Shown piece after piece: positions 7,432-39,477 of a stretch of DNA of 64,000 nt (position 1 is its first letter; every line of letters starts with the position of its first letter). Made by a program: the position numbers and the translations under genes. Source of the DNA: an uncultured Gammaproteobacteria bacterium (GTDB taxonomy: Bacteria > Pseudomonadota > Gammaproteobacteria > Magnimaribacterales > TMED112); NCBI GenBank assembly GCA_964575305.1, contig CAZNPG010000004.1, forward strand, positions 5,647 to 69,646, read 5' to 3'. Under the pieces are notes generated by a model that was not told the DNA's origin, searched no databases, and saw only the letters and a list, made by a program, of their open reading frames with translations.

Positions 7432-7511
7432 TTATCAGTAGATTAGCTCATTTTTCACCATAGGAATAATTTAATTTTTATATATAATCTTTACTATCTG
7501 GGGATTACATT

Positions 7512-8441
7512 TTGAGTTCTGAAACATTACTTATTGATTTGGGTGGGACAAACCTAAGGGCAGGTGTTGGTAACCCTGAATCTTTAAAAGTATCAGATGT
7601 CAAAAAATTTCCCATCAAAACAAATGACGACTTTTATAATGCTTTGGATTCAATAAATTCTGAGGCTAATTGTAATGAAATCATAATTTCTGCCGCTGGC
7701 CCATGTGAAAACAATACAATTTCCATGACAAATAGAGATCTTTCCATTTCAGGTACTGATGTTGAAAAAAGATTAGGTGCTTCAGGATGCTATTTGTTAA
7801 ATGACTGGGAATCTATTGGCTATTCTTTACCACTAATGAAAGACAATGATCTAAAAACCATTAAGCAAGGCAACTTAGATTTGCAGAATACTTGTCTTGC
7901 GATCGGTCCTGGCACTGGTCTAGGTTTTTCTGTGCTTAGGTATGTAAAAAATACTCCTTATGTATATGCAACGGAATTAGGAAACACAAAATCTTTTAAT
8001 GCATATTTCAGTAAGTTGTTTGAGGTGAATAATGATTTAGAATTTCTTGTTCTAGAAGATTTTCTTTCAGGGTCTGGTATAAAAAAGATTTATAAGGAGA
8101 AAAGTGGAGAAAGCTTAACCCCAGAAGAAGTAGTCGGAAATTATGGAACAAATGATTTAGCAACATTTGTTATCGATAAGTTTGTCATAGGCTTAGGTGT
8201 TTTGTTATCAGATTTGGCTTTAACTTTTAATGCAAAAGGGGGCATTTTTTTTGCAGGTAGTATAATGAGAACAATCTCAGAAATGAAAGCCATAAATATG
8301 CTTAAAGATAACTTTGAAAATCATCATTCAGAAGCCCACAATAATATTTTAAAAAACATTTCAATAAATTTAATTAACAAACAACATACGCCTTTGTATG
8401 GGAATTTGAATTATTCTGTCATAAGGAGGTTACATGAATAG
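7512..8441 (+). CDS. glk: Glucokinase
   Basis: IDLGGTNLR, LLNDWE, GPGTGLG, LEDFLSGSG; TTG start after a GGGGA RBS. Confidence 0.85.
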   Translation: MSSETLLIDLGGTNLRAGVGNPESLKVSDVKKFPIKTNDDFYNALDSINSEANCNEIIISAAGPCENNTISMTNRDLSISGTDVEKRLGASGCYLLNDWESIGYSLPLMKDNDLKTIKQGNLDLQNTCLAIGPGTGLGFSVLRYVKNTPYVYATELGNTKSFNAYFSKLFEVNNDLEFLVLEDFLSGSGIKKIYKEKSGESLTPEEVVGNYGTNDLATFVIDKFVIGLGVLLSDLALTFNAKGGIFFAGSIMRTISEMKAINMLKDNFENHHSEAHNNILKNISINLINKQHTPLYGNLNYSVIRRLHE

Positions 8442-10035
8442 TTTAGACTACTTAATAGTTGGATTTTATGCTGTTGCTCTTATAGCAATTGCAACTTACG
8501 TCTCTAGAACTAAAAAAGGAGAGGATAAAACACCAGAAGAGTATTTTCTGGCAGGTAGATCGCTTCCTTGGTGGGCTATAGGTACATCTTTAATTGCAGC
8601 AAATATTGCTGCTGACCAAATTATTGGTATGAATGGAGATGCCTATGCATTTGGAATGGCAATAGCAGTATACGAATGGACTGCAGCTGTAGCTTTAATT
8701 GTTGTAGGGAAGTTTCTGCTACCTGTTTATCTAAAACAACAAGTTTTTACTATGCCTCAATTATTATCTCAACGATACGATACGAGGGTGAGTAAATTAC
8801 TCGCTGTATTAATGTTAATAATGTATATCTTTGTGATTTTGCCCACTATTTTGTGGCTTGGTGCGAAAGCAGTAAACAATCTTACAGGTCTAAATTTAAT
8901 TATGGCTATGGTATTGCTGGGTTTATTATCTCTTGCCTACTCATTGTATGGTGGATTAAAAGCTGTCGCCTTTACTGATATTATCCAAGTTAGCTTGTTA
9001 ATTTTTGCAGGTTTATACGTTTCTTATGTAGGTTTAAATGCCATATCAGATGGAGCTGGAGCATGGGAAGGTTTTATGACCTTGCAAGCTAATTTCCCTG
9101 AAAAGTTTGATGCCTTATTATCTTATGTGCCTAAAGAACAAGATCCTGAAGCATATGGAAATTATGTAAAACTACCTGGTATATGGGTGCTGATTGGTGG
9201 TATGTGGATTGCTCATTTTTATTATTGGGGAACAAATCAATACATAACTCAAAGAGCACTTGGTGCTAAAAGTTTAAATGAAGCACAAAATGGCCTGATG
9301 TTTGCAGGTTTTTTAAAAATATTGATGCCTGTAGTTGTGGTTCTTCCAGGTTTAATAGCAGTTGCCCTTGAAGGCACAACTATACCTTCTCTTGAAGGCG
9401 ATAGAAGTAGAGCTTATCCATCCATGTTGTCATTGCTTCCTAATGGCATATTAGGGTTAACTTTTGCAGCATTGGTAGCAGCTATCGTCTCATCTTTAGC
9501 TTCACTAACAAACAGTGTTAGCACTATATTTACAATGGATTTATATAAAGGTGATATGTCAATGAACGATAAGAGTCTTGTTGGTGTGGGTCGAAAAGCA
9601 GGCCTTATTGGTTTGATTATTTCCATCATTGTTGCACCTATCTTCCTTGGAAGTTTAGACTCAGCTTTTCAGTATGTGCAAGAGTACATGGGTTTATTTA
9701 GTCCAGTAATATTATTTGTCTTCTTGTCAGCAATTATCTTCAAAAATTCAACTTCAAACTCAGTTTTATGGGGTTCTGCAACTGCCTTAATTGCAGGTGT
9801 AATAATGAAGCTTTATGTGGCAAATACTTCTGAATCATTAATTGAACCATTTATGCATCAAATGGCTATTTCATTTTTCTTAGCTTTTGTTGTCAGTAGT
9901 TTGCTCTCACCTAACAATGAGAATGCCAAAGTCTTTGCTTTAACTGCAGAGGATTTCAAAACCTCAAAGTTATTCAATATAGGGTCGATTACCATCGTTG
10001 CTATCTTGGCTGCAATATATATAAATTACGCATAA
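8434..10035 (+). CDS. Sodium:solute symporter (SGLT-like sugar/Na+)
   Basis: EEYFLAGRSLPWW, YGGLKAVAFTDIIQ, NQYITQRALGAK; many TM helices. Confidence 0.92.
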   Translation: MNSLDYLIVGFYAVALIAIATYVSRTKKGEDKTPEEYFLAGRSLPWWAIGTSLIAANIAADQIIGMNGDAYAFGMAIAVYEWTAAVALIVVGKFLLPVYLKQQVFTMPQLLSQRYDTRVSKLLAVLMLIMYIFVILPTILWLGAKAVNNLTGLNLIMAMVLLGLLSLAYSLYGGLKAVAFTDIIQVSLLIFAGLYVSYVGLNAISDGAGAWEGFMTLQANFPEKFDALLSYVPKEQDPEAYGNYVKLPGIWVLIGGMWIAHFYYWGTNQYITQRALGAKSLNEAQNGLMFAGFLKILMPVVVVLPGLIAVALEGTTIPSLEGDRSRAYPSMLSLLPNGILGLTFAALVAAIVSSLASLTNSVSTIFTMDLYKGDMSMNDKSLVGVGRKAGLIGLIISIIVAPIFLGSLDSAFQYVQEYMGLFSPVILFVFLSAIIFKNSTSNSVLWGSATALIAGVIMKLYVANTSESLIEPFMHQMAISFFLAFVVSSLLSPNNENAKVFALTAEDFKTSKLFNIGSITIVAILAAIYINYA

Positions 10036-10040
10036 TAAAT

Positions 10041-12464
10041 ATGAAACGTTTTGTAATAATATTTTTACTATCAATACCGTTATTTAGCGATGAATTGAAT
10101 TGGGAAAGAGTAAATTCTTGCCCAGTTGGAAATATGGCTTTTGTTGAAGAGGTCTTGTCTGAAATGACCTTGGAAGAAAAAGTTGGCCAAACAATTATGG
10201 CTGATTTAGATTTTATTAAACCTAGCGATCTTAAAAGATATCCAATAGGCGGGATTCTTAATGGAGGTAATACCTCACCAAATGGCAATCAAAGAGCTAG
10301 TACAAATGAGTGGAAACGTCTCGCACAGGATTTTTATGATGAATCAACGAATTCAGGAGCAGATATTCCGATTCTTTGGGGCACAGATGCAGTGCATGGT
10401 CACAGCAATGTTTTTGGTGCCACAATTTTCCCTCATAATATTGGTCTTGGTGCTTCAGCTAATGAAAAGCTTTTAGAGGATATTGGCGCAGCTGTGGCAG
10501 AAGAAGTCCTAGCTACTGGTCTTTATTGGACTTTTGCCCCAACCGTTACAGTTCCACAAGATTATAGATGGGGAAGAACTTATGAAGGTTATTCTGAAAG
10601 CCCAGAATTAGTTTCAAAATTAGGTGAAGCATTCATATATGGTTTACAAGGAAGAGGAGATCAATTCCTAGCACCAAATAAAATTATTGGTACTGCAAAA
10701 CACTTTTTGGGCGATGGGGGCACTTACTTAGGTGTTGATCAAGGAGATACAAAGGTAAGTGAAAATATTTTAAAGGATATACATGGAACACCTTATTACA
10801 GTGCTCTTGATGCATGTATACAAACTGTGATGGCAAGTTTTAATTCATGGAATGGTTCAAAGGTACATGGAAATGAATACCTTCTTACTGAGGTTCTAAA
10901 GAACCAAATGGGTTTTGATGGTTTTGTTGTTGGGGACTGGAATGGTCATGGTCAAATACCAGGATGCTCTAATGGTAGTTGCCCAGAATCACTTATTGCA
11001 GGTGTTGATATGTACATGGTTCCTGAAAATTGGAAGGATCTATATCGTAATACTTTAAGACAAGCAGAGAATGGTGATATTCCAATTGAACGGTTAGATG
11101 ATGCAGTGAGGAGAATCTTAATTGTAAAAGAAAGGCTTGGTCTATTTGAGGGAAAGAAACCATCAAATTCTCCTTTTTCTGAAGTAGGTTTACAACATAA
11201 TAGAGATATTTCACGCCAAGCAGTGAGAGAATCTTTAGTGCTATTAAAAAATAATGAAAATGTGTTACCAATCAAACAAGGAAAAAAGGTCTTAGTTATT
11301 GGTCCTGATGCTGATTCTTTGAGAACTCAAACAGGCGGATGGACACTAGATTGGCAAGGCACCAATAACCAGAATAAAGACTTTCCTAATTCGGTTACTT
11401 TTTTAGATGCTCTTAAAGAAGAAGTCGGAGCTGAAAATGTTACCCATGTACAGTTTTTAAATAGTGTAAATGCTGAGGATTATGATGTTGCAATTGTTGC
11501 ATACGGAGAACAACCATATGCTGAAGGCGTGGGCGATAGAAGTAATTTAAATTTTTCATCTAAAAGACACATAGCATTTTTAGAGCTGCTTGCAGAAAAT
11601 AAGATACCTACTGTTTCTTTGTTTTTTACTGGTAGACCATTATGGGTAACAAAAGAAATTAACTTATCTGACGCTTTTGTAGTTGCCTGGTTACCAGGTA
11701 CTGAATCAAGAGGCATGACAGATGTTTTGGTTAATGGTGATAAGACAAATTATGACTTTACTGGTAAATTACCCTTCAGTTGGCCTAAAAACACCTATCA
11801 AGCAAACTTGAATTACTATGATGCAACAAGTGACCCATTATTTGCATATGGCTACGGCCTTACTTATGAGGATAATGTTTCAGTTCCTAATCTTGATGAG
11901 GGAGAAATCAATGCTAACGAACAACTCCCTAAAATTGAGTTATTAAAAGGTACAATTAGTGAGAATTTCATAGGTTACATTCAAGAAAGCAACCTTCAAC
12001 AAGTACAGATTTCAAGTAATAAAGTTTCTTCACAAAATAATATTGTTAAAGTCGACTTAATTGATGTTAATAAACAGGACGATACCTTAAAACTGAAAAT
12101 TACTGAGTCAGATCACCTCAATAGCTTTTTACTTCTATCGAAAGAAATTCTTAATTTAAGATCATTTGATGATGGATATATAAACTTGAGAGCAAGGGTA
12201 AATGAAACAAATCAGGATATTAAATATTTAATTTCATGTGGAATAGGGTGCACTCCAGTATTAGATCTTTCAGAATTTTTGACAAAGTCTGATACTTTTA
12301 TTGACTATAGTTTACCTATAAAGTGTTTTTCTAATAACAGTAGTCTTGACTTATCAAAGGTAAATTTACCCCTATACATTGCTACAAAAGGACCACTAGA
12401 TTTAGATTTAATGAATGTAGAGATAGGAAGAGAGAAGGGCGAAAAGGTCCTTGAGTGTTACTAA
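10041..12464 (+). CDS. Periplasmic GH3 exo-beta-glucosidase with extra C-terminal domain (ExoP-like)
   Basis: Signal peptide; WGTDAVHGH, RWGRTYEGYSE, KHFLGDG, VGDWNG (nucleophile), GEQPYAEG, WLPGTE. Confidence 0.9.
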   Translation: MKRFVIIFLLSIPLFSDELNWERVNSCPVGNMAFVEEVLSEMTLEEKVGQTIMADLDFIKPSDLKRYPIGGILNGGNTSPNGNQRASTNEWKRLAQDFYDESTNSGADIPILWGTDAVHGHSNVFGATIFPHNIGLGASANEKLLEDIGAAVAEEVLATGLYWTFAPTVTVPQDYRWGRTYEGYSESPELVSKLGEAFIYGLQGRGDQFLAPNKIIGTAKHFLGDGGTYLGVDQGDTKVSENILKDIHGTPYYSALDACIQTVMASFNSWNGSKVHGNEYLLTEVLKNQMGFDGFVVGDWNGHGQIPGCSNGSCPESLIAGVDMYMVPENWKDLYRNTLRQAENGDIPIERLDDAVRRILIVKERLGLFEGKKPSNSPFSEVGLQHNRDISRQAVRESLVLLKNNENVLPIKQGKKVLVIGPDADSLRTQTGGWTLDWQGTNNQNKDFPNSVTFLDALKEEVGAENVTHVQFLNSVNAEDYDVAIVAYGEQPYAEGVGDRSNLNFSSKRHIAFLELLAENKIPTVSLFFTGRPLWVTKEINLSDAFVVAWLPGTESRGMTDVLVNGDKTNYDFTGKLPFSWPKNTYQANLNYYDATSDPLFAYGYGLTYEDNVSVPNLDEGEINANEQLPKIELLKGTISENFIGYIQESNLQQVQISSNKVSSQNNIVKVDLIDVNKQDDTLKLKITESDHLNSFLLLSKEILNLRSFDDGYINLRARVNETNQDIKYLISCGIGCTPVLDLSEFLTKSDTFIDYSLPIKCFSNNSSLDLSKVNLPLYIATKGPLDLDLMNVEIGREKGEKVLECY

Positions 12465-12931
12465 GACTCAAGCTCATTTGCTGAGATAAGAATTCCATTT
12501 TGGTCAACATATGCCCAGTATTCTGGTTGTATGTTGACTTCATCAACCACGAAGGATGCATTAATCTCCCCTTTACCATTTTTATTGCTTTTCTTTGGAC
12601 AAGCTCCAAGAGCATAAATGCCTAAGTTCATATTTTTTAATATTTGAATATCTCTAACACAGCCATTGACTATAATTCCTCCCCAATTGTTTTTAATAGC
12701 TAATTCAGCAAGATTGTCTCCTAATAAAGCAACATTCTTTGATTTGCTACCATTAATGAATAAAACAGATTGTTCTCCATCTCTAGATAAGATCTCTCTT
12801 ACTAAAGAATTGTCATCTGGACATTCAACTGTAACTATTTTGCCTGCAAATTCTGTAACATTTGTGTAGGGCGTGAATCCTAAGATGAAAGGAAGATGTG
12901 GGTATTTATCTGATAGATCAGGTGTAGTCAT
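12461..12931 (-). CDS. rraA: RraA family protein (RNase E regulator / HMG aldolase-like)
   Basis: TPDLSD, DNSLVRE, ALLGDNLA, WGGIIVNGCVRD. Confidence 0.85.
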   Translation of the reverse strand: MTTPDLSDKYPHLPFILGFTPYTNVTEFAGKIVTVECPDDNSLVREILSRDGEQSVLFINGSKSKNVALLGDNLAELAIKNNWGGIIVNGCVRDIQILKNMNLGIYALGACPKKSNKNGKGEINASFVVDEVNIQPEYWAYVDQNGILISANELES

Positions 12932-12956
12932 AAAAAAAGGGAGGCGAACCTCCCTT
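12932..12956 (-). terminator. Intrinsic terminator of the TBDR gene at 12983-15709
   Basis: Minus strand AAGGGAGG-TTCG-CCTCCCTT followed by a U-tract. Confidence 0.9.
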
Positions 12957-12982
12957 ATATATTAAACAAAAATACTAACTAC

Positions 12983-15709
12983 TTACCAGTAGTATCCAAA
13001 TCTAATCAACTTTTGAGATGGAGCGGAATAAGCTCCTCTAGGTATGCCTGCTTCAACTCCTATAGACCATGGCACAACTTCACTTTTTGCATTGTAAGAT
13101 GCAAACTGAATATACCAGTTGTCTTTAGAATCCAACGTTAAGAAATAATCAAACATCTCCCAAGCTGGACGTAGATCAGTATAGTTCTCAAGTGGTAAAC
13201 AGAAATAACCAGGACCATCACAACCACCTTCATCATCAACGTGTTTGTCCATATTCCATGGAGTTACATAAGAATCAGTTTCCCAGTGGTAATTAACACC
13301 AGGTTTTAATTCCATACCATTTTGTAGTCTATAGGTGTGCTCAAATCGCACTGTTAAGGCTACATCTGGAGTGTAGGGTGCTTCATTGCCTTTTAAGTTT
13401 ACAAAGTTATTAGGATTTGTTGGATCAATTGAAGCTCCATAATCTCTTCCAAATAAAGCATCCTGACCATATCTCCACATTGTATTGAAATCATCTGTAA
13501 ATTCTGTGTGGTAACTAGTTACGAAGCCTGATAGTTTACCTCCATCATAAGGTAACCATGTGTATTCAAACTCAACTCCCCAATGAGTTTGTTCACCAAA
13601 GTTCTCGGTTGTCCAAAGAGTTACACCTTGATCGTAATATGTGAATTGGCCAAATGTTGGTGAATTTGGGTCAGAATCGTACCCATATACTTCAACCACA
13701 TCAACTGGCAAGTTACCTGTAAATTGTTTGCCATCGTAAATTGTATAAAAAACATTAAAGGAATAATTTAACGTATTGTCTTCATTTTTTGCTTTAACAC
13801 CCCACTCACCTGTAGTTACATATTCTGGGTCATAATTAAGGTCTACTCTTTGACCTTCAGAGTACAACAATGAGTTACTTGGTGCCACATACACATCAGC
13901 CAAGCTTCCTGATTTATAGGCGTTAGCTAAGTAAGCGTACATAAATGAGGTATCACTCATGTCCCAATCAAGACCTAAACGCCAAGAGAAATTATCCCAA
14001 GATTGTGAAGTATCATTATTTGTAACAACAACACCACAACCAATCATTGGTGCTACACAATCGACACCGTCAACCATTTTACCCATTTGAATCCAATAAT
14101 CTGGAGCTAATTGATTGATTGCGTCAAATGGATTGCCACCAGTACCATAAATTTCAGGATAACAACCATTACCACTATTACAGTTAATATTTCTGCCACC
14201 TACATCTGATTTTTCATCGTAAGAGAATCTTCCTCCAAAGGTAAAAAATAGATCATCTCTTAATGCATATGTTGCCTGACCATAAACTGCATAATGGTTT
14301 AGTTCTCTATTGGGTTGCCAAAAATAATCATGCCCATTTAATTCGGCTGTGAAATTTGCAAGCATATCGTTGTCTTCAGTGCTCGTAAAAACTCCACCAA
14401 CCCAAGCCCATTTATCGTCAGCTCCAGTTAGATAAGCATCCAAAACATTTGATTCAGTAAGAAGTCTATTTATATTGAAAGCCATGCCATATTGATAATT
14501 CACACCTGAATCAATTTCAAATTGGCTTGATTGTTCTAACTCTTGATAACCATAGTTAACAGTTAAGTTAGTTGTTTCATTTAGTTGACGTTTATATATT
14601 GCTCTAAATGAATCCATATTCATCTTATTAAAGCCAGGAGTGTTTGCATAAGCTTGGAATCTATTTTCAGAACCAAGGATATCCGTACATGTATTAGCTG
14701 GTCCATCTTTAGCCATTGCACCTTGTCTTGTTTTCATCAATTCGCAGCTGAGCACATTAGTCCAACCCTTTCCGTTATCTTCATAATTTTCATATTGAAG
14801 ATTGATGTCAGCATTATCATCAATGACATAAGTTGCGCTTACTCTCCATGCACTATCTTGAATAGCTGTATAGAAGTCTGCTGGGTCAGCTTTAACTTTT
14901 GTGAAAGGATCTGCAAATGTTCCTTGACCACAACCATTACCAGGTTGAGTTGAGCAGCCTAGGTACCAAGCATAATCAGATAAATAACTTCTTTGATCTG
15001 GACTAGTAATTGCTTGAAATTGATCTGTGATATTAGAAGGTAATCTTCTCCAATCAAGCTGCGAACCATCCCAATAACCATCTAAAAATGAATCTTTAGA
15101 TTGTTCCATATAAGCAAATCTTAATGCCAATTTTTCATTAATTGGAAGGTTATAGTGTGCTCTTAATCCAGCTTGATTTAATTGCCCACCTTCTAAATTT
15201 AATGAACCACCTTGAATATCAAAATTTGGTTTAGCAGTAACTATATTTAAAGTTCCAACAACTGAGTTTCTACCATATAAAGTACCTTGAGGACCTCTTG
15301 TAAGCTCTGTTCTTTCTAAATCAAACATCAGTGCATTGGCTGCTTGCGGTCTTGCTACATAAACACCATCAACATGTATACCAACTGCAGGATCACCTAA
15401 TTCAGTGACATTCTCGGTTCTAATGCCTCTTAAAGTTATGATTGGTGCATTGGTATCAGTATTCTGAACATAGAGACCTGGAATCATATTATTTAGATCT
15501 TTTATGTTGTTTAGACCCAATTCAATCAATTGAGTGCCTGTCAAAGCTGTAACAGCTTGAGCAGTATCAAGTATATCTTTTTCAGTTTTTGTAGCAGTTG
15601 TTACAACTACCTCTAATCCTTCATCTTCTTCATCATTTTCTTGAGCAAAAGTTGGAAGCATTAAGGTTAGCAACATTAAAGTTTTTAGAAGTGTATTTAG
15701 AAAGTCCAT
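12983..15709 (-). CDS. TonB-dependent receptor (probable glucan oligosaccharide uptake)
   Basis: Signal peptide, EVVVTT TonB box, ITLRGI, LTRGPQGTLYGRN, aromatic C-terminus; sits between GH3 and GH16 genes. Confidence 0.93.
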   Translation of the reverse strand: MDFLNTLLKTLMLLTLMLPTFAQENDEEDEGLEVVVTTATKTEKDILDTAQAVTALTGTQLIELGLNNIKDLNNMIPGLYVQNTDTNAPIITLRGIRTENVTELGDPAVGIHVDGVYVARPQAANALMFDLERTELTRGPQGTLYGRNSVVGTLNIVTAKPNFDIQGGSLNLEGGQLNQAGLRAHYNLPINEKLALRFAYMEQSKDSFLDGYWDGSQLDWRRLPSNITDQFQAITSPDQRSYLSDYAWYLGCSTQPGNGCGQGTFADPFTKVKADPADFYTAIQDSAWRVSATYVIDDNADINLQYENYEDNGKGWTNVLSCELMKTRQGAMAKDGPANTCTDILGSENRFQAYANTPGFNKMNMDSFRAIYKRQLNETTNLTVNYGYQELEQSSQFEIDSGVNYQYGMAFNINRLLTESNVLDAYLTGADDKWAWVGGVFTSTEDNDMLANFTAELNGHDYFWQPNRELNHYAVYGQATYALRDDLFFTFGGRFSYDEKSDVGGRNINCNSGNGCYPEIYGTGGNPFDAINQLAPDYWIQMGKMVDGVDCVAPMIGCGVVVTNNDTSQSWDNFSWRLGLDWDMSDTSFMYAYLANAYKSGSLADVYVAPSNSLLYSEGQRVDLNYDPEYVTTGEWGVKAKNEDNTLNYSFNVFYTIYDGKQFTGNLPVDVVEVYGYDSDPNSPTFGQFTYYDQGVTLWTTENFGEQTHWGVEFEYTWLPYDGGKLSGFVTSYHTEFTDDFNTMWRYGQDALFGRDYGASIDPTNPNNFVNLKGNEAPYTPDVALTVRFEHTYRLQNGMELKPGVNYHWETDSYVTPWNMDKHVDDEGGCDGPGYFCLPLENYTDLRPAWEMFDYFLTLDSKDNWYIQFASYNAKSEVVPWSIGVEAGIPRGAYSAPSQKLIRFGYYW

Positions 15710-15838
15710 TATTCCCCTTAGAGTTGATTAAAACTGCTTAAAAAATAAACTTATTGGTAATGTATGTCAACATTTTACATATGTTTGGCTATTGATATAA
15801 TCAGGTCTTAATTCAAATCAAAAATAGCTTATTAATTC

Positions 15839-17491
15839 ATGTCTAAAATTAAACTTAAAATAGTAAATATTTTTATTTTAATATTAGTAACAGCATGTTC
15901 AGGCGGTTCATCTGGGACTAATGAGGGTATTTATCCAATACCTACACCGGCTCCTACACCAGCTCCTACCCCAGAACCAACACCGGAACCAACTCCAGAG
16001 CCAACACCGGAACCAACTCCAGAACCGACACCGGAGCCAACACCAGCTCCAAATACTTTGTATGTCGATGATTTTGAAGATTATCCAGCTGATGTTGAAA
16101 ACATTAGTCCATGGAAGGCTTATGTAAATAGATTTCAAACAGATTGCACTAGTTATATAGATGGTTACCAAGTAAGTCCTGCTCCAAATGGCGAAAATAT
16201 TAGTAGCATTTCATCGGGAGAAGCTGGCGTAAATGGTGGCGATCAGTATTTAAATATTTTTAGCAATTATGGTGATGATCATAACTCAGTATGTCTGGAA
16301 ACAAGTGTGTACAGAGAGTTCATAATAAATGATTCCTTTGAAGGGGATTTTTCATTTTCATTTGATGCTAAAAGGCCAGCTGCTGAAGGTTCCGCAGTTG
16401 AAGAACCATCTAGTGCTAGAGCATTTATAAAAAAACTTGATCCAAATTCTGGGTTTTCAACAGTTGAATACGAATGGCAAGATATGACAGATATTTCAAA
16501 ACAAACATGGTCCAGAGGGGAGATAACCACAACTGTTGATGCTGATGCTGAACAAGGATATTACCTTCAATTTGGCTATAACAATATAGCAACTGCTTAT
16601 AACCCCAGTGGAGTTCTATACGATAATGTTGTCATAGAAGGTGGTTTAGCGCCTGAACCAACACCAGCTCCATCTGTTGATTTCTGCCCAAATATTACCC
16701 CAAATGAGTACGATGAATTTAATTTAGTTTGGCAGGACGATTTCACCGGTAATGTTTTAGACACTAATGTATGGTCATATATGTATGGCGATGGCTCACA
16801 GTATGGGATCCCAGGTTGGGGCAACAGCGAATGGCAACTTTATACTGACTCATCTGAAAATGTTTATGTAAAAAATGGCTGTTTATATATAGTGCCAAAA
16901 TACAATGAATCAGATGATCAGTATTACAGTGCCAGATTAAGATCAAAAGGTGGCCAAACGTTTCTATTTGGCAGGATAGATGTTGGTTTTTCTGCACCGT
17001 CGATGAATGGAGTATGGCCAGCAATTTGGATGATGCCAGAATACGATAGATATGGGGGTTGGCCAAAAAGTGGAGAGATCGACATTATGGAAGGAAAAGA
17101 TCAATTGATTGATCAAATAAACACGACAGCTCATTATGGCCATGATTACCATAGGTACTATTCCAGATGGACATCTCTATCATCTCAAGATTTTACCAGT
17201 GACCCAGCCAATCATAATGTCATAAGCCTTATATGGGATGAGCAAGGATTTCAATGGGTTTATAATGATGTAGTTTTATTTACGTTGGACTATACAACAT
17301 TAGAAAATCTCGAACCAAACCCATTCTTAGAAAGATTTCATATGATTCTTAATTCTGCTGTTGGTGGACATTATCCAACATACACACCAAATGCAGATCA
17401 GTATTGCAAAATTAATGACACTGCTGATTGTTATGACTCACAAAAACTTATTATTGATTATGTTGCTTACTATCAAAAAAGCTCTGAGTAG
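15839..17491 (+). CDS. GH16 endo-beta-1,3-glucanase (laminarinase-like) lipoprotein with Pro/Thr linker and CBM-like middle domain
   Basis: Lipobox VTAC; WPAIWMMP; catalytic GEIDIME; FHMILNSAVGG. Confidence 0.9.
   Translation: MSKIKLKIVNIFILILVTACSGGSSGTNEGIYPIPTPAPTPAPTPEPTPEPTPEPTPEPTPEPTPEPTPAPNTLYVDDFEDYPADVENISPWKAYVNRFQTDCTSYIDGYQVSPAPNGENISSISSGEAGVNGGDQYLNIFSNYGDDHNSVCLETSVYREFIINDSFEGDFSFSFDAKRPAAEGSAVEEPSSARAFIKKLDPNSGFSTVEYEWQDMTDISKQTWSRGEITTTVDADAEQGYYLQFGYNNIATAYNPSGVLYDNVVIEGGLAPEPTPAPSVDFCPNITPNEYDEFNLVWQDDFTGNVLDTNVWSYMYGDGSQYGIPGWGNSEWQLYTDSSENVYVKNGCLYIVPKYNESDDQYYSARLRSKGGQTFLFGRIDVGFSAPSMNGVWPAIWMMPEYDRYGGWPKSGEIDIMEGKDQLIDQINTTAHYGHDYHRYYSRWTSLSSQDFTSDPANHNVISLIWDEQGFQWVYNDVVLFTLDYTTLENLEPNPFLERFHMILNSAVGGHYPTYTPNADQYCKINDTADCYDSQKLIIDYVAYYQKSSE
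15941..16051 (+). repeat. Nine tandem 12-nt units encoding a PTPA/PTPE linker
   Basis: CCT ACA CCG GCT / CCA ACA CCG GAA etc.; synonymous variation between units. Confidence 0.95.
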
Positions 17492-18419
17492 CCTTCTTCT
17501 TTTTTTCACGCTTTCAACATTTGCTGAAATAAATAATGTTTCAATTGTTATCCATGGTGGTGCAGGTTGGTTCACAGGCATGGCTCAAGATGATATCGAT
17601 GGCATTAAAAAGGCTTTAGAAGAGTCAGCTAATAAAGGTTATGAGATTATGCTTAAGGGCGGCACAAGTATAGATGCTGTTGAGGAGGCCATAGTTATAT
17701 TGGAGGATAATCCACTCTTCAATGCTGGAAAGGGAGCAGTTTATACATCAGAATTTAAACAGGAATTAGATGCTTCCATTATGAATGGTTCTGATTTAAA
17801 TGCTGGAGCAGCTGCTTCTGTGACAAACGTTAAAAATCCTATAAGGCTAGCAAGACACATAATGGAAAATACAAAACATGTTATGTTTTCCAGTAAAGGG
17901 GCTGAAAGAGTTGCTAAGGAGGCTGGCTTGGAGATTGTCTACCCAAGCTATTTTTATTCAAAAGAAAAGCTTGAAAGAGCAAGAAATCAACAAAAGAAAA
18001 GCAAAATGGGCACAGTAGGTGTTGTTGCTTTAGATGCGTACGGCAACATAGCTGCAGGCACGTCAACTGGTGGAATGACAAACAAGAAACCAGGCAGGAT
18101 TGGAGATTCACCAATTATCGGTGCAGGAACATGGGCAGAAAATAATGTATGCGGTGTGTCAGGTACTGGTCATGGTGAGTACTTCATAAGGCTTGGTGTT
18201 GCAAAAGAAATTTGCGCATTAGTGAAATATCAAAACTTAGGTATTGAGCAGGCCGCTCAGGCAGTAATTGATAAGTTAGGAGATATGGGAGCAGATGGGG
18301 GCGTCATAGCATTAGACTCAAATGGCAATCCTGCAATGATATTCAACACTCCTGCAATGGCCAGGGCTTATAAAAATTCAGATGACAGCACTTACGTAGA
18401 GATATACACAGATAAGTGA
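17460..18419 (+). CDS. iaaA: Isoaspartyl peptidase/L-asparaginase (Ntn hydrolase) with signal peptide
   Basis: IHGGAG, PLFNAGKG, GTVG nucleophile, GTSTGG, GRIGDSP; start moved to ATG 17460 (MLLTIKKALSSLLLFFTLSTFA). Confidence 0.88.
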   Translation: MLLTIKKALSSLLLFFTLSTFAEINNVSIVIHGGAGWFTGMAQDDIDGIKKALEESANKGYEIMLKGGTSIDAVEEAIVILEDNPLFNAGKGAVYTSEFKQELDASIMNGSDLNAGAAASVTNVKNPIRLARHIMENTKHVMFSSKGAERVAKEAGLEIVYPSYFYSKEKLERARNQQKKSKMGTVGVVALDAYGNIAAGTSTGGMTNKKPGRIGDSPIIGAGTWAENNVCGVSGTGHGEYFIRLGVAKEICALVKYQNLGIEQAAQAVIDKLGDMGADGGVIALDSNGNPAMIFNTPAMARAYKNSDDSTYVEIYTDK

Positions 18420-32149: not shown

Positions 32150-35100
32150 ATGACTAAAAGATTACTTTTACTATTAGTTTCTCTAGGATTCTACGGTTTA
32201 GCATTTGCTGATCAGGAAGTCGACGAAGCGGCTGATCCTGTTGTCGAGCAAGTTGAAACTGGAGATGACTCAGACGAAGCCGAGCCAGAAGAAGTGGTTG
32301 TTACTGGTTCTAGAATTGCTAGAACTCAGTACGAAGTCGCTCAACCAGTGACTATCATTTATGGCGAGGAGTATGAAAATAGAGGTTATACAAATGCCGC
32401 TGATGCATTATTTGATGTACCAGGTATTGGTGTAACAAACTCTCTAACAAACGGTTCAGGCGGTAGCTTTGGTAACCAAAGCTCACTCAGTGTGGGTCAA
32501 GCACTCGCAAATAACTTTGGACTAGGATCAGGTAGAACATTAGTTCTAGTAAATGGAAGAAGATTCGTTGGATCTACATCTCCATTTGGTTCAGGTGGTT
32601 CAGGTAATGCCGTTGATATTAACAATATCCCATCAGTAATGATCGATAGAGTTGAAATTGTAAACGCTGGTGGTTCAGCAGTTTATGGTTCTGACGCTAT
32701 TGCAGGTGTTATTAACTACGTTCTCAGAGATGACTATGAAGGAGCAGCAATGACTCTTACATACGATGATTACGCAGGTATGTCATCTGATACATCATTC
32801 CAAGCTGTTATGGGTGGTAACTTTGCCGGTGGTAAAGGTAACATGGTAATGAACTTCCAATACGAAGAAATTGGAACAGTATTTACTGGTGATTGGGACA
32901 GATACTATGATAGAGAGACTGGCATGTGTAATACAAACTCACTTGTAAGAACATATGCTGCAGGCAAATCATATCAACAACAATACATTAGAGCTGGAAT
33001 GGTCGTACCTTTCACAGCTAATGTAGAAGGTGTTCCTCAAGTAACACAAACAGGTTGTATTGGACTATCAGCTATTCCTGAGACAGGAAAAGCTTCTGCA
33101 TATGAGTATTCATTTAAAGCAGGTACATATGGTCTTTGGTTCTACGATGGTGCACTAGGTTCAGATGGACAAATGTGGCACTTTGGTGGCGCTCCAGGTG
33201 ACCTAATGCCTTACGATGATGGTATTAACTATGGTAGTTCTTTCTTTGGTTTTGATAACCCAGCTGGTTATAGATCAGACTACAACACATTAAGAGCAGG
33301 ATTCGAAAGACTAAACTTCAGCATGTTCTCAAACTACGATGTTAATGACAACATGACAGTTTACTTTGATGCTTTCCACAATGGATTCTTCTCATTTGAC
33401 TACGGAAACACATCTGGATACCCATATTCAACATATGCGTTTGGATCAGGACAAGACTTCCCTCCAACAATAGGTATCGATAACCCATACTTAACTCAGA
33501 ATTCTGTAGATATTCTGAATTCATATGGACTATCAAGTTTCCACGTATCTAAATCACAAGTTGATTTACTTCAAAAAGGTGATGGTGGATATACAATCGA
33601 AAACAATAACTCAGTTTCAATGTACTCAGTAGGTGTTGAAGGTAGTTTTGATCTTGATGATCAAACATTCAACTACTCAGCTGGTTACTCAATTGGTAAT
33701 ACAGAGATTTATTCAGATGCCCCTGGTGTAATCGGAGCTAGATACGCTGCAGCACTAGATGTAGGTATTAACCCTGCAACAGGTGAGATTGATTGTAGAA
33801 TGAACTACGATCCAGATCGTGATCCAGCATTATATGATTATTCACCGTTTGCTCCTGGATATTTCACAGGTGGAACATTATATGGTCCTAGCATTTTAGG
33901 TGCTGTTGGTGATTGTGCTCCTTTAAACATTATGGGTAGAGGTGCTCCATCAGAAGCTGCTAGAAATTATGTTGGTACTAATTTAAGAACTAATGCATTT
34001 ATTGAGCAAGAAGTTACATTTGCTAACTTATCTGGTGATTTATTTGAAATGCCAGCTGGTGCAGTTAAAGCTGCATTAGGTTTTGAAGCTAGAGTAGAGC
34101 AAGGTGACTATAATGCATCTGCTATACAAAATCTTGGTTTAACTAGATCAGCTCCAAGACCATCATTAGGTGGTGGGTATGAAGTTGATGCTGATTACTA
34201 CGAAGTTAGTGTACCTCTAATGGGTGGCGACTGGACATTACCAGGTGTTGTCTCAATGGTTCTTGACTTCTCAGCTAGAACAATTGATAACTCAATTGCT
34301 GGTGCATACGATGTAGAAGCTACATCTTTGAACTGGAGAGTAATGGATGATTTAGCGATTAGAGTATCCGAGCAGACAGCTATTAAAGCTCCTGATCTTG
34401 GAGACTTATTCTTACCACAGATTACTACATTTAGTACAGCTGCTGACCCATGTGACTACAGATACAGAGAAGTCGGTAGAAATCCAGAAGTTAGACAAGC
34501 TAACTGTGATGCTGAAGGAATTCCAGCTGACTTTGTTTCATTAGTTGTTAATGCAACAGCAAGTGGTGTTACTGGTGGTAATCCAAATCTTATTAATGAG
34601 ACAGCGGATACTAAATCTACAGGTATCGTTTACCAACCTTCATGGTGGGGTGACGTATTCTTTGGTAGTTTAAACTTAGCTGCTGACTATATTGAAATTG
34701 AATTGAATGATTACGTAACTTCATTCTCTTTAACTCAAAATATGGAAGCATGTTATGACTACGAAACATATCCAAATAGTCAATTCTGTGATTCATTCAC
34801 AAGAGACGCTGATTTTGAAGTTGTAGATTTTGCAACTGGTTTAATCAACGCTGGTTTAATTGACTTTGCTACTTATGTTTATAAAGCTGACTTTGCTTTT
34901 GATGTATCAGAAATGGCATCATGGGTATCAAGAGAGAATGTTGCTATGGACTTAGGTTCAATGGCTATCAGATGGAGAGCTACGCAAGAAGACTTCTTTG
35001 CTAGTGCAGATTCTGGTGCTGCTGAAGACCTATCTTCTGCAACAGGACAGTTTGGTAACGATGAATGGTTCTACGATACATCAGTAGAGTGGGCTAAGGG

Positions 35101-35392
35101 TAACTGGTATGTATGGGTTCAAGGTAACTCAAGATCCGGTGGTGTTATAGATATTAACCGTCAGTTTGATGATGAATATCTAGGATACGATGGTAACCCT
35201 ATATTTGAATTTGATGGATATACTACTTACAACGGTGGTGTAGGTTATACAGTGAATGATGACACAACAGTCAGAGTAAACTTCTATAACTTAATGGACT
35301 ACGATGGATTTGAAGATGATGTCTTCACTCCAGAAGCAGACCTTCTCTTCGTTGGAAGACAAGTTAATGCAAGTGTAAACGTTAGATTCTAA
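32150..35392 (+). CDS. Large TonB-dependent receptor (1080 aa)
   Basis: EEVVVTGSRI, GRTLVLVNGRR, IDRVEI, VYGSDAIAGVIN, C-terminal Phe. Confidence 0.94.
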   Translation: MTKRLLLLLVSLGFYGLAFADQEVDEAADPVVEQVETGDDSDEAEPEEVVVTGSRIARTQYEVAQPVTIIYGEEYENRGYTNAADALFDVPGIGVTNSLTNGSGGSFGNQSSLSVGQALANNFGLGSGRTLVLVNGRRFVGSTSPFGSGGSGNAVDINNIPSVMIDRVEIVNAGGSAVYGSDAIAGVINYVLRDDYEGAAMTLTYDDYAGMSSDTSFQAVMGGNFAGGKGNMVMNFQYEEIGTVFTGDWDRYYDRETGMCNTNSLVRTYAAGKSYQQQYIRAGMVVPFTANVEGVPQVTQTGCIGLSAIPETGKASAYEYSFKAGTYGLWFYDGALGSDGQMWHFGGAPGDLMPYDDGINYGSSFFGFDNPAGYRSDYNTLRAGFERLNFSMFSNYDVNDNMTVYFDAFHNGFFSFDYGNTSGYPYSTYAFGSGQDFPPTIGIDNPYLTQNSVDILNSYGLSSFHVSKSQVDLLQKGDGGYTIENNNSVSMYSVGVEGSFDLDDQTFNYSAGYSIGNTEIYSDAPGVIGARYAAALDVGINPATGEIDCRMNYDPDRDPALYDYSPFAPGYFTGGTLYGPSILGAVGDCAPLNIMGRGAPSEAARNYVGTNLRTNAFIEQEVTFANLSGDLFEMPAGAVKAALGFEARVEQGDYNASAIQNLGLTRSAPRPSLGGGYEVDADYYEVSVPLMGGDWTLPGVVSMVLDFSARTIDNSIAGAYDVEATSLNWRVMDDLAIRVSEQTAIKAPDLGDLFLPQITTFSTAADPCDYRYREVGRNPEVRQANCDAEGIPADFVSLVVNATASGVTGGNPNLINETADTKSTGIVYQPSWWGDVFFGSLNLAADYIEIELNDYVTSFSLTQNMEACYDYETYPNSQFCDSFTRDADFEVVDFATGLINAGLIDFATYVYKADFAFDVSEMASWVSRENVAMDLGSMAIRWRATQEDFFASADSGAAEDLSSATGQFGNDEWFYDTSVEWAKGNWYVWVQGNSRSGGVIDINRQFDDEYLGYDGNPIFEFDGYTTYNGGVGYTVNDDTTVRVNFYNLMDYDGFEDDVFTPEADLLFVGRQVNASVNVRF

Positions 35393-35408
35393 AGTAATCT
35401 TAATCTTT

Positions 35409-35438
35409 AAAAGGGGAAGGAAACTTCCCCTTTTTTTT
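35409..35438 (+). terminator. Intrinsic terminator after the TBDR
   Basis: GGGGAAG-GAAA-CTTCCCC plus T8; short A-run upstream. Confidence 0.92.
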
Positions 35439-35446
35439 ATTTAAAA

Positions 35447-35468
35447 ATACTGTATACTTATACAGTAT
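35447..35468. promoter_or_regulatory. LexA (SOS) box overlapping a TATACT -10 element
   Basis: ATACTGTATA-CT-TATACAGTAT perfect inverted repeat; 18/20 match to TACTGTATATATATACAGTA. Confidence 0.85.
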
Positions 35469-35631
35469 GAAAGAATTAATAAATCATTTTTTAAAGCAAC
35501 CTTTAGATAACGTATATATTGAACGTGTTGCTTTTCAATATTTTGAATCTGACTATAAGGCTGCAGAAAATTTCCTTTGTTCACTCAGAGCTGAAAATAA
35601 TCACAATATTACTAAGAATTACTTCAATTAA
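35467..35631 (+). CDS. Unknown 54-aa protein, probably leaderless and SOS-regulated
   Basis: Hand translation MKELINHFLKQPLDNVYIERVAFQYFESDYKAAENFLCSLRAENNHNITKNYFN*; ATG overlaps the end of the LexA box. Confidence 0.55.
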   Translation: MKELINHFLKQPLDNVYIERVAFQYFESDYKAAENFLCSLRAENNHNITKNYFN

Positions 35632-35654
35632 GATCTGAAATAAATTAACATTTC

Positions 35655-35848
35655 TTTAGGTGTCCCACACTCTATTTACGCAGAGAAATATGGTGTGTTA
35701 GATTAATTCTCAGCCGAAGGAGGTGATCCAAATTAGTATTAAAACAAATTCAGGATTATTAGGAGGTAATTGCTGACACCAATTATGGCCTAAGTCCGAC
35801 ATAAGGTTTTAACTTTATGAATAGCCTCTTTTTTAGAGGCTTTTTTTT
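35655..35848 (+). ncRNA. Candidate structured RNA of unknown family
   Basis: Hand-folded helices 35666-35677/35686-35697, CAGC/GCTG, TGATCC/GGATTA, GGTGT/ACACC, 35800-35819; ends in terminator; no AUG-initiated ORF of note. Confidence 0.45.
35823..35848 (+). terminator. Intrinsic terminator 3 nt upstream of the EamA start codon
   Basis: AGCCTCT-TTTTT-AGAGGCT plus T7. Confidence 0.85.
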
Positions 35849-35851
35849 ACC

Positions 35852-36709
35852 ATGAATACAAAAGATTTTTTAACATTATTATTAGTCTCCTTTTTTTGGG
35901 GAGGTTCATTTTTATTCTTACGTTTATTAGTAATAGAAGGGCTAAACCCTTTACAAATCGTTTCTCTGAGAATGATGTTTGCTGCTATATTTATTGCACC
36001 CTTTTTTTTATTAAAGTTAAAAAAATATTCCTTTTTTGATCATGGTTTCTCTTTTCTATTAATTGGTTTACTCAATACAGCACTACCATTTACGTTATTT
36101 GCTTATGCGTCTGTTAATTTGGGAGCAGGATCTTTATCTGTATTACAAGCTACAGTTCCAATTCTTACAGCCTTAATTCTCTTTTCCCTGTATAGAGATG
36201 AATTTTCAATAATGAAGCTTGTAGGTGTATTAATAGGATTTTCAGGCTTATTTTTATTAGCTGGTCCTTCCGGTGAGTTAGATTTATTCTCATCTATCTT
36301 ATGTGTTATTGCATCATTGTCATACGCTATATCAGGTGTTTATTTAGCTAATACACCACAAAAAATTAATAACTCTTTTGTTGGTATGGGTTCTATTATT
36401 GTTGGTGCTATATTGCTTTCACCATTCTTAATTAATTATCACAGTGCAAATTTAAATATTAGTTCTACAGCTTGGCTTTATATAGCATTGTTGGGTGTAA
36501 TTAACACCTCATTAGCATATGTAATTTTTATTAAATTGATTAAACGAATTGGTTCATTAAACGCTTCATTCGTAACATACTTGGTGCCTGTATCAAGCAT
36601 CTCACTTGGCATACTCATTTTAGATGAAGTGTTTACTATAGATATGATTATTGGATCATCATTAATTTTCCTTGGAGTATTTTTCTCCAACAGAGAAAAG
36701 ACTAGCTAG
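35852..36709 (+). CDS. EamA/DMT family transporter
   Basis: FWGGSF, two repeated hydrophobic halves, YLVPV, GILILDE. Confidence 0.9.
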   Translation: MNTKDFLTLLLVSFFWGGSFLFLRLLVIEGLNPLQIVSLRMMFAAIFIAPFFLLKLKKYSFFDHGFSFLLIGLLNTALPFTLFAYASVNLGAGSLSVLQATVPILTALILFSLYRDEFSIMKLVGVLIGFSGLFLLAGPSGELDLFSSILCVIASLSYAISGVYLANTPQKINNSFVGMGSIIVGAILLSPFLINYHSANLNISSTAWLYIALLGVINTSLAYVIFIKLIKRIGSLNASFVTYLVPVSSISLGILILDEVFTIDMIIGSSLIFLGVFFSNREKTS

Positions 36710-37642: not shown

Positions 37643-37719
37643 TGGTGCGCCCGGGAAGACTCGAACTCCCGACATCCTGGTTCGAAGCCAGGCACTCTAT
37701 CCAGCTGAGCTACGGGCGC
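37643..37719 (-). tRNA. tRNA-Arg(TCG)
   Basis: GCGCCCGTAGCTCAGCTGGATAGAG...CCTGG-CTTCGAA-CCAGG...CGGGCGCACCA. Confidence 0.95.
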
Positions 37720-39392
37720 TAATATCCAGAAGCTTGACCATCCTTTCTGCTTTCGGATGCCCCATAATATACACCATCTTTTAACATTATTGCTTGGTAG
37801 CCGCCAAATCCACCCTTATCGTATTTTAGTTTATGTCCCTTATTTAATAGTTCTTGCCGTGTTTGATCAGAAAAACCTGATTCTAAGCTTATATAGCCTC
37901 CATCAAGCATTATCTCTCCCGTTGGTTGAGAAGAACCAACATGTCTTATTCTTGGTGCATCTCCAGCTTCCTGAAGATTCATATTAAAATCGATAAGATT
38001 AATAACTACTTGTGCATGTCCTTGAGGTTGCATAGCACCACCCATAAGACCGAAACTTATAAAAGGCATATCATCCTTAGTTATAAAGGCAGGGATAATT
38101 GTATGAAATGGTCTCTTACCTCCAACTAAAGAATTCTTATGGTTAGGATTTAAACTAAACATTTCTCCTCTATCTTGAAGCATAAAACCAAGGTCTTTAG
38201 GAACCATGCCAGAGCCCATGCCTCTATAGTTACTTTGTATAAGAGAAACCATATTTCCGAATTTATCAGCAACTGTAAGGTAAATAGTATCTCCATCTTC
38301 TAAACCAGCATCGAATCTAGTTGCAGCTTTATTTTTATTTATTAATTTAGTCCTAATAGATGCATAATTTTTTGAAATTAATTCAGATGTAGGAACATCA
38401 GAAAAATTTGGATCCGCATAATATTTAGCTCTGTCTTCATAAGCTAATTTTTTGGCCTCTGTAAAAAGATGAATATATTCAGCAGAATCTAGTTCCATGG
38501 AAGAGATATTAAAATTCTCAAGGATATTTAAAATTTGTAGCGCAGCTATTCCCTGGCCGTTTGGAGGCAACTCCCAAATATCATAACCTCTATAATTTGA
38601 GGATACTGGTTCTATCCATTCTGGTTCAAAATTTGCTAAATCTTTTATTGTTAATAAGCCACCTTGCGATTGGATGAAATCTGCAATACTTTTTGCTATA
38701 TCTCCACTGTAAAAATCTTGTCCATATGACGATGCAATTTTTTTATAGGTAGTTGCTAATTCTTTATTAGTAAAGATTTCTCCTTTGTCAGGTGTTCGCC
38801 CATTTTTCATCCAAACATTAGAGAAGTTTGGATAATTTTTAAATCTATTAGCTGATCCTTCTAAATAATATGCAACTAACTCAGAAACTGGAAAGCCATT
38901 TTCTGCATAACTAATTGCGTTATTAAATATTCCATTAAAATCTGCACTTCCAAATTTTTTATGAAGAGCAACCCATCCAGCTACTGCCCCAGGGACTGTT
39001 ACAGGTAAGGGCCCATATGCTGGGATCTTATCAAGACCTTGATTCTTAATAAAATCTATATTCATATCTTTTGGTGCAGGACCAGATGAATTTAAGCCAT
39101 ATAATTTTTTTGTTTTAGCATCCCATACAATTGCAAATAGATCACCACCAATACCACAGCCTGTTGGCTCTACTAGTCCGAGTACAGCATTTGCTGCAAT
39201 AGCAGCATCAATAGCATTTCCACCTTCTTTCAATACATCTATTGCCGTTTGCGTTGCTAATGGATGACTTGTTGCAGCCATTCCATTTTCAGCTATTACT
39301 TCAGATCTACTTGCGAAGGGAAGGCCAGTGATCCTATCGTAGCTAAAAACACTATTTAAGAAGAAAAAAAGAAGAATAATTTTATATTTCAT
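37719..39392 (-). CDS. ggt: Gamma-glutamyltransferase family Ntn hydrolase with signal peptide
   Basis: [22 protein letters not shown] nucleophile, [13 protein letters not shown]; start moved to ATG 39392 because the longer ORF overlaps a tRNA. Confidence 0.92.
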
Positions 39393-39400
39393 AACTAAAA

Positions 39401-39477
39401 TGGTGCGCTTGGGAAGATTCGAACTCCCGACCTCTTGGTTCGTAGCCAAGCGCTCTATCCAGCTGAGCTACAAGCGC
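39401..39477 (-). tRNA. tRNA-Arg(ACG)
   Basis: GCGCTTGTAGCTCAGCTGGATAGAG...CTTGG-CTACGAA-CCAAG...CAAGCGCACCA. Confidence 0.96.

Follow-up and report, generated by a model that had tools for sequence, protein, structure and literature searches.

A LexA-type palindrome over the start of a conserved small-protein gene, in tandem with a structured small RNA, in SAR86 bacteria

In SAR86 genomes, a conserved open reading frame (ORF) for a protein of 54 residues starts on the last bases of a perfect palindrome that resembles a LexA operator (hereafter, the box), and a conserved structured small RNA (sRNA) follows on the same strand. We read this arrangement, with a probability of roughly 0.6, as a lineage-specific SOS gene, with a LexA-type operator lying over both its promoter and its start; in this reading the ORF, which has no Shine-Dalgarno (SD) sequence, is probably leaderless and stands in tandem with, and runs into, an independent sRNA. 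It is the operator itself that points to control of the ORF by LexA.

The window, i.e., the whole 64,000-nt stretch of DNA that was analyzed, has a G+C content of ~33% and encodes TonB-dependent receptors, glycoside hydrolases, a glucose symporter, queuosine enzymes, SecDF, and similar functions. The features discussed here are as follows.

35409-35439, + strand: intrinsic terminator of the TonB-dependent receptor gene (11-bp stem and T-run)
35447-35468, no strand assigned: palindrome, whose core (35448-35467) is the candidate LexA-type operator (CTGT-N8-ACAG; from sequence, scans, and conservation)
35453-35458, + strand: TATACT, a -10-like hexamer within the box (from sequence)
35467-35631, + strand: small protein gene, 54 aa, three predicted helices (from ORF, family, dN/dS, and AlphaFold2 model)
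35646-35651, + strand: TAACAT, -10-like (TAnnAT in ORF-bearing clades), candidate sRNA promoter (from alignment and inference)
35658-35849, + strand: conserved structured sRNA of ~190 nt, ending in its own terminator, 5' end approximate (from conservation and covariation)
35666-35697, + strand: 5' hairpin of the sRNA (CACAC...GUGUG with an inner helix; 9 pairs, 6 changed on both sides)
35717-35739, + strand: invariant 23-nt sRNA segment AAGGAGGTGATCCAAATTAGTAT (from alignment of 15 variants)
35732-35776, + strand: candidate micro-ORF within the sRNA (AUU, 13 codons, UGA), beginning 8 nt after GGAGG
35753-35797, + strand: long hairpin of the sRNA (base GGAUU/AGUCC, middle UAGG/CCUA, top AAUUG/CAAUU, invariant loop CUGACA)
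35800-35819, + strand: 3' hairpin of the sRNA, CAUAAGG/CUUUAUG (read from alignment)
35823-35849, + strand: intrinsic terminator of the sRNA or ORF-sRNA transcript (hairpin 35823-35841 and T-run, 2 compensatory pairs)
35852-36709, + strand: EamA-family transporter gene, outside the unit (from Pfam)

Elsewhere in the window, the region 6082-18419 is a glucan-use cluster (GH13 alpha-amylase family, glucokinase, Na+/solute symporter, GH3, TonB-dependent receptor, and GH16) and is similar to the 'carbon assimilation region' of SAR86, the site of an abundant non-coding RNA according to Dupont et al. 2012. A 576-aa gamma-glutamyltranspeptidase ORF with a TTG start (37719-39449, - strand) overlaps a tRNA (39404-39477, - strand); its true start is probably further downstream, and relatives call a 557-aa product.

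The palindrome can be read directly from the sequence as a perfect 10-2-10 repeat, ATACTGTATA-CT-TATACAGTAT (35447-35468). The E. coli-type LexA consensus is TACTGTATATATATACAGTA, and the operators of Gamma- and Betaproteobacteria have the form CTGT-N8-ACAG, e.g., those of recA, sulA, umuDC, and tisB. Scored against this E. coli/gammaproteobacterial type of consensus, the 20-nt core of the palindrome, TACTGTATACTTATACAGTA (35448-35467), matched at 18 of 20 positions, the two mismatches being the central ones. The loose pattern CTGT-N8-ACAG occurs once in 64 kb versus 0.68 expected and is not significant alone; the full consensus with no more than three mismatches likewise occurs once, versus 0.00 expected (100 shuffles). 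The box combines the CTGT-N8-ACAG arms with a TA-rich spacer and TAC/GTA flanks, as expected of such an operator, and it is also placed like one, covering both TATACT and the ATG (35467-35469; its A and T are shared with the end of the palindrome) and being conserved with the ORF in relatives. The perfect palindrome close to the LexA consensus, the TATACT within it, and the ATG on its last bases are all present as the original prediction described them.

Wherever SAR86 has the box, its sequence does not vary. The window and the 29 loci that carry it, which take in 11 of the 13 SAR86 species representatives, agree at 100% of its positions, and a stretch of 24 nt, ATACTGTATACTTATACAGTATGA, is identical in every ORF-bearing locus (the window and 29 fetched loci). 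This invariance extends to clades in which the proteins share only 37-46% identity and synonymous sites have reached saturation, and the stretch of 8-10 nt that separates the box from the upstream T-run varies freely among relatives. Base-for-base invariance of a palindrome amid saturated neutral sites is as expected of a protein-binding operator that overlaps a core promoter and a start codon. Co-conservation of the ORF and the box had been suggested as a check on the proposed gene, and the box turned out to be identical in every ORF-bearing genome compared; among the SAR86 loci compared, it was present wherever the ORF was present and absent where the ORF was absent. An origin in phages was considered and rejected, given that the sole IMG/VR match to the box is a SAR86 chromosomal fragment and that the sRNA core has no viral match. 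That fragment, L114 (IMGVR_UViG_3300006480_000127), is filed as viral and carries SAR86 chromosome, i.e., the receptor gene end, the terminator, the box, and the start of the small ORF.

The surroundings of the box restrict where transcription could begin. Upstream lies the TonB-dependent receptor gene (32150-35392), followed by a terminator hairpin (35409-35434) and a T-run reaching to about 35439; this terminator is kept in all relatives, with a compensatory change from GGGGAAGG/CUUCCCC to GGGGAGGG/CCUCCCC. Only about 8 nt separate its T-run from the palindrome, so any promoter of the ORF must overlap the box. TATACT is located 8 nt before the ATG and there is no SD sequence, a geometry compatible with a leaderless mRNA. 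Used as the -10 element, TATACT would put the transcription start at ~35464-35467, which is 0-3 nt before the AUG, and this geometry suggests an ORF mRNA that is leaderless or nearly so. Alternatively, a weak A-rich -10 element that ends at 35448 might place the start a few bases farther upstream; neither option gives the ORF an SD sequence. A consensus scan found no full -35/-10 promoter at the ORF, and the -35 region is poor.

In the SOS reading, a LexA dimer bound to the palindrome would block RNA polymerase at the TATACT -10 element, and DNA damage would free the promoter via RecA-stimulated self-cleavage of LexA. Transcription would then begin on the AUG or a few bases ahead of it, and the message would be translated without an SD sequence. 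The sRNA would arise in two ways, as an independent transcript from a weak -10-like element of its own and as the 3' portion of the transcript that begins at the ORF, so SOS induction would also raise sRNA levels.

Assembled metatranscriptome contigs were used as the evidence of transcription. More than 12 marine metatranscriptomes hold parts of the locus, and at least six runs (X1, X2, X3, X5, X6, and X9) yielded contigs that reach from within the ORF into the sRNA. In run X3, the ORF-sRNA contig had a depth of 186 whereas the end of the adjacent receptor gene had none, a contrast that argues for RNA over DNA carry-over. Some of the metatranscriptome contigs continue through the sRNA terminator into the EamA gene. 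Contig ends at 35473 and 35658-35660 were rejected as transcript ends; they coincide with borders between shared and strain-specific sequence, where assemblers break, and are probably assembly break points. Separately, a high-depth receptor-gene contig of run X5 ends at 35394, 2 nt past the stop codon and before the terminator hairpin, running into Illumina adapter, which could reflect either processing of the 3' end or an artefact of the library.

The original prediction had placed a single unit between two terminators. Terminator-like hairpins with T-runs do lie at 35409-35434 and 35823-35841, but there are two elements between them, and the 3' half, earlier read as a 3' tail, is an independent sRNA.

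The small ORF was found in 20 distinct versions of 49-56 residues, always in the same syntenic place (QueF, TonB-dependent receptor, ORF, and EamA transporter) and with a family core of the form FL..P.D..YI.R.AFQYF..D...A..FL. The Nei-Gojobori dN/dS, calculated from the 43 codons that could be aligned beyond the ATG and with synonymous sites saturated, had a median of 0.22 over all 98 pairs; it was 0.02-0.15 in close pairs and 0.02-0.45 between the window and each relative. Variable columns numbered 33, 21, and 41 of 44 at codon positions 1, 2, and 3, respectively, and the other two frames of the region are full of stops. Judged by this conservation and substitution pattern, the small ORF is a real gene, as the original prediction had supposed, and is under purifying selection. 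The description of the gene as unannotated holds for its function, as the exact protein of the window was found on 243 public contigs and named only 'hypothetical protein', but gene callers do predict the ORF in public records.

Both word-indexed searches and exhaustive HMMER profile searches recovered the family from SAR86 sequences only, the profile search adding two clades; two further HMMER matches were discarded as long, repetitive, and unrelated proteins. The 54-aa protein had no significant match in Pfam, NCBIfam, PHROGs, PDB sequences, or Foldseek searches of PDB and BFVD, and Rfam, at the gathering threshold and at E up to 10, returned nothing for the ORF. AlphaFold2 on the family alignment gave three helices with a mean pLDDT of 79, and the peptide has no hydrophobic span, so that the product is predicted to be soluble and three-helical. 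A peptide unlike TisB or DinQ and belonging to no recognized family had been proposed, and the searches bear this out. As a guess, the protein may be a lineage-specific SOS effector, e.g., a modulator of RecA/LexA or of cell division.

Some observations count against the SOS reading. A near-consensus operator should repress tightly, yet the ORF transcripts reach appreciable depth in natural samples. No second LexA box was found, and no lexA, recA, or other SOS gene was recognized, in about 100 kb of this genome (the window plus 10 kb at each end), so that a cross-check for a regulon has no partner gene or box there. Metagenome contigs were also scanned for the LexA recognition-helix motif NAAEEHLKA in AT-biased codons, which is a narrow pattern. 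The scan gave 75 lexA loci, nearly all with CTGT-type boxes upstream, and with this pattern none of the 75 was attributable to SAR86. The attributable loci were from marine Betaproteobacteria (the lowest-G+C group), Colwellia, Pseudoalteromonas, Moritella, and Oceanospirillaceae; one lexA family presumably resembles Haemophilus LexA, and other loci were in copiotroph gene contexts. Protein searches, a cluster look-up, and inspection of L097 and L104 likewise gave no lexA assignable to SAR86. In three metagenome contigs with 33-34% G+C (L044, L034, and L080), the lexA gene of AT-rich marine Betaproteobacteria has a single TACTGTATAAATATTCAGTA box 35 nt before its ATG. In two SAR86 genome papers, supplements included, we found no mention of lexA. 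Given the abundance of SAR86 in marine metagenomes, the lack of a SAR86 lexA in the scan is weak evidence against LexA control.

The same result favors an alternative that we consider unlikely, in which SAR86 has no LexA and the palindrome is the operator of another dimeric DNA-binding protein, perhaps the 54-aa product itself acting as an autoregulator. Its likeness to a LexA box would then be convergent or inherited from a lost regulon. That the box and the ORF always co-occur and are lost together fits an autoregulator, and the nearest Foldseek neighbors of the predicted structure, none of them significant, are helix-turn-helix chains of Fis (E 4.6, probability 0.07). However, matches of this kind are at noise level, no helix-turn-helix family was found in the Pfam, NCBIfam, or PDB sequence searches, and an 18/20 match to LexA, with CTGT/ACAG arms and TA flanks, would be very unlikely for an unrelated operator.

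A role of the palindrome as RNA has less in its favor and is very unlikely. Folded in read-through transcripts into a hairpin of 9 bp, it would sequester the AU of the start codon and thereby control translation or stability of the ORF. The hairpin is predicted at -8.7 kcal/mol (z -3.4), and a metatranscriptome contig from one relative (run X8) spans the receptor gene, the terminator, and the box into the ORF, but that contig has a depth of 3.5 and may be DNA, and a strong terminator lies 8 nt upstream of the palindrome. An RNA hairpin would moreover tolerate compensatory changes, like the neighboring terminator, whereas no base of the palindrome varies, its unpaired center included.

Downstream of the ORF, ~190 nt are almost invariant across relatives while the ORF diverges strongly. 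RNAalifold predicted 39 pairs, 11 of them with compensatory changes. In a conservative structure of 23 pairs, 96.8% of cells were paired and 11 of the 23 pairs were changed on both sides; none of 500 shuffles scored as high, and slid controls were 37-52% paired. The helices are accordingly kept by compensatory substitutions, as in a structured RNA. In the long hairpin, 3 of the 5 pairs of the top helix are compensatory, and its base and middle helices are visible by eye in the alignments; in an RNAalifold alternative, GUGAUCC pairs with a downstream GGAUUAU, whose GGAUU can also close the long hairpin. The 3' hairpin, which takes the forms CUGUAAA/UUUACAG in L013 and L030 and CCAUAA/UUAUGG in L017, was left out of the formal pair count because MAFFT misaligns that part. 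The candidate promoter TAACAT sits 7 nt upstream of the start of sRNA conservation and was missed by a strict promoter scan, and the sRNA terminator ends 2 nt before the EamA start codon.

In Rfam 15, whose families include 6S, SRP, tmRNA, IMES, and riboswitches, there was no match within 35632-35822 at the gathering threshold, and searches at E up to 10 gave only low scores, far below the gathering scores. The sRNA thus appears to be undescribed in curated libraries. It is a single-copy element without paralogous copies in the window and 32 SAR86 loci (nhmmer), and a 20-mer of its core had an exact match in 13 species-representative assemblies, including the closed 1.0-Mb CP097968.1, all of them titled SAR86 cluster bacterium or uncultured/MAG Gammaproteobacteria, which places the window in SAR86 (Magnimaribacterales). 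Two SAR86 MAGs, L026 (CAZMZZ010000008.1, 1873-2106) and L027 (CAJWPI010000004.1), have the sRNA directly after the terminator of a TonB-dependent receptor gene, with neither the box nor the ORF, indicating that the sRNA is an independent gene and not merely a peculiarity of a 3' UTR. In L026 the sRNA has its own terminator, followed ~80 nt later by a gene for a 478-aa exported protein instead of EamA. A riboswitch or cis-acting leader of EamA was rejected, given that the sRNA of L026 precedes this different gene.

The sRNA, which includes AAGGAGGUGAUCC, has a 23-nt segment, AAGGAGGUGAUCCAAAUUAGUAU, that shows no change among its 15 distinct variants, the ORF-less clade included. The first 15 nt of this segment are the exact complement of the canonical 16S rRNA 3' end (UUGGAUCACCUCCUU); the comparison is with the canonical end, as the SAR86 16S gene is outside the window. 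AGGAGGTGATCC is unique in the window. An SD-like motif occurs within 20 nt of the start in ~8 of the 53 window ORFs of at least 120 aa, some of these motifs being terminator stems, and on this count the SAR86 genome seems to use SD sequences rarely (~15% of genes). The micro-ORF frame has no internal stop and keeps the same length throughout the 15 variants (e.g., ISIKTNSGLLGGNC and ISIYLLAGMTGVTF), and the other two frames carry stops. Codons 8-14 fall in helices with compensatory changes, and coding by the micro-ORF is uncertain because half of its codons overlap covarying helices. Our guess is a regulatory sRNA that works by means of its invariant, single-stranded, SD-like segment; it may be an sRNA that binds ribosomes or proteins, a dual-function RNA that also encodes the micro-ORF, or a switch.

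It is conceivable, and in our estimate highly improbable, that the box, the ORF, and the sRNA make up one damage-responsive translation module, which would shift the balance of SD-dependent versus SD-independent or leaderless translation under stress. Derepression at the box would then yield a leaderless mRNA fused to an RNA with an invariant 15-nt complement of the 16S 3' tail, and this RNA could occupy the anti-SD of the ribosome or recruit ribosomes to the 14-codon, AUU-initiated micro-ORF.

That the ORF is untranslated, being no more than the front part of an sRNA precursor, or else a leader of the EamA gene, and conserved for its function as RNA, is hardly credible: RNA contigs do join the ORF and the sRNA, and the terminator does abut the EamA start codon, but the substitutions are those of a coding sequence (low dN/dS, third positions varying most, and only the ORF frame open), the ORF region diverges strongly where the sRNA is nearly invariant, and the sRNA occurs without the ORF and beside a different downstream gene.

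SAR86 is among the most abundant bacterial groups of the sunlit ocean and has only recently been cultured. To our knowledge, next to nothing has been established about how it is regulated. An SOS-type operator that is strictly conserved on a small gene peculiar to this lineage would give a first handle on the response of these streamlined cells to UV damage, and an sRNA segment mirroring the anti-SD tail in an SD-poor genome offers a testable hypothesis of RNA-based control in a cultured organism. The combination is unexpected, in that a putatively leaderless SOS-box gene is fused to an anti-SD-mirroring RNA in an SD-poor genome. If SAR86 genomes prove to have no lexA, the perfectly conserved LexA-like palindrome will be a puzzle in itself.

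Comparison with known RNAs gives partial likenesses. Abundant unassigned marine sRNAs were reportedly recovered from metatranscriptomes by Shi, Tyson and DeLong in 2009. Dupont et al. 2012 placed one of the Shi et al. marine sRNAs in SAR86 genomes, in a region of glycolysis, glucose uptake, and pentose-phosphate genes (PMC3358033). Like the sRNA described here, that RNA is non-coding, SAR86-borne, and well represented in ocean metatranscriptomes, a comparison made by description only, and its placement in that gene region is a difference. The RNA was given without sequence, and our sRNA might be the same one (Dupont et al. 2012, PMC3358033). With CsrB, RsmY, and RsmZ the sRNA shares GGA-containing motifs, of which 3-4 are conserved (AAGGAGG, CAGGAUU, and UAGGAGG), although the Csr/Rsm sponges have far more of them. 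Similar to the dual-function sRNAs (SgrS/SgrT and RNAIII/hld), it has a stop-free frame of 14 codons behind a perfect SD, but here translation would have to start on AUU, and covarying helices take up half of the 'codons'.

Small SOS proteins (DinI, YebG, TisB, and DinQ; the division inhibitors SulA, SidA, YneA, and SosA) are likewise short, lineage-restricted, and directly under an SOS-type box, and the 54-aa protein resembles none of them in sequence or fold. Toxins of the TisB/DinQ type are membrane peptides, whereas this protein is predicted to be soluble, without a membrane helix, and the antisense sRNAs of tisB/istR and dinQ/agrB are overlapping or divergent, whereas the sRNA here is on the same strand, downstream, and non-overlapping. 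An SOS-linked type I toxin-antitoxin system was rejected on these two grounds, the soluble three-helix protein and the co-oriented downstream sRNA.

The box itself has the closest likeness to a known element. Just as in the LexA operators of Gamma- and Betaproteobacteria, a 20-bp palindrome, with arms and flanks intact, lies over the presumed -10 element and gene start and is conserved across species. It differs from them in overlapping the start codon itself, which implies an SD-less or leaderless mRNA, and in that the repressor is here putative. By this resemblance, the box and its gene would be a known kind of system, an SOS-box gene, in an important and little-studied lineage.
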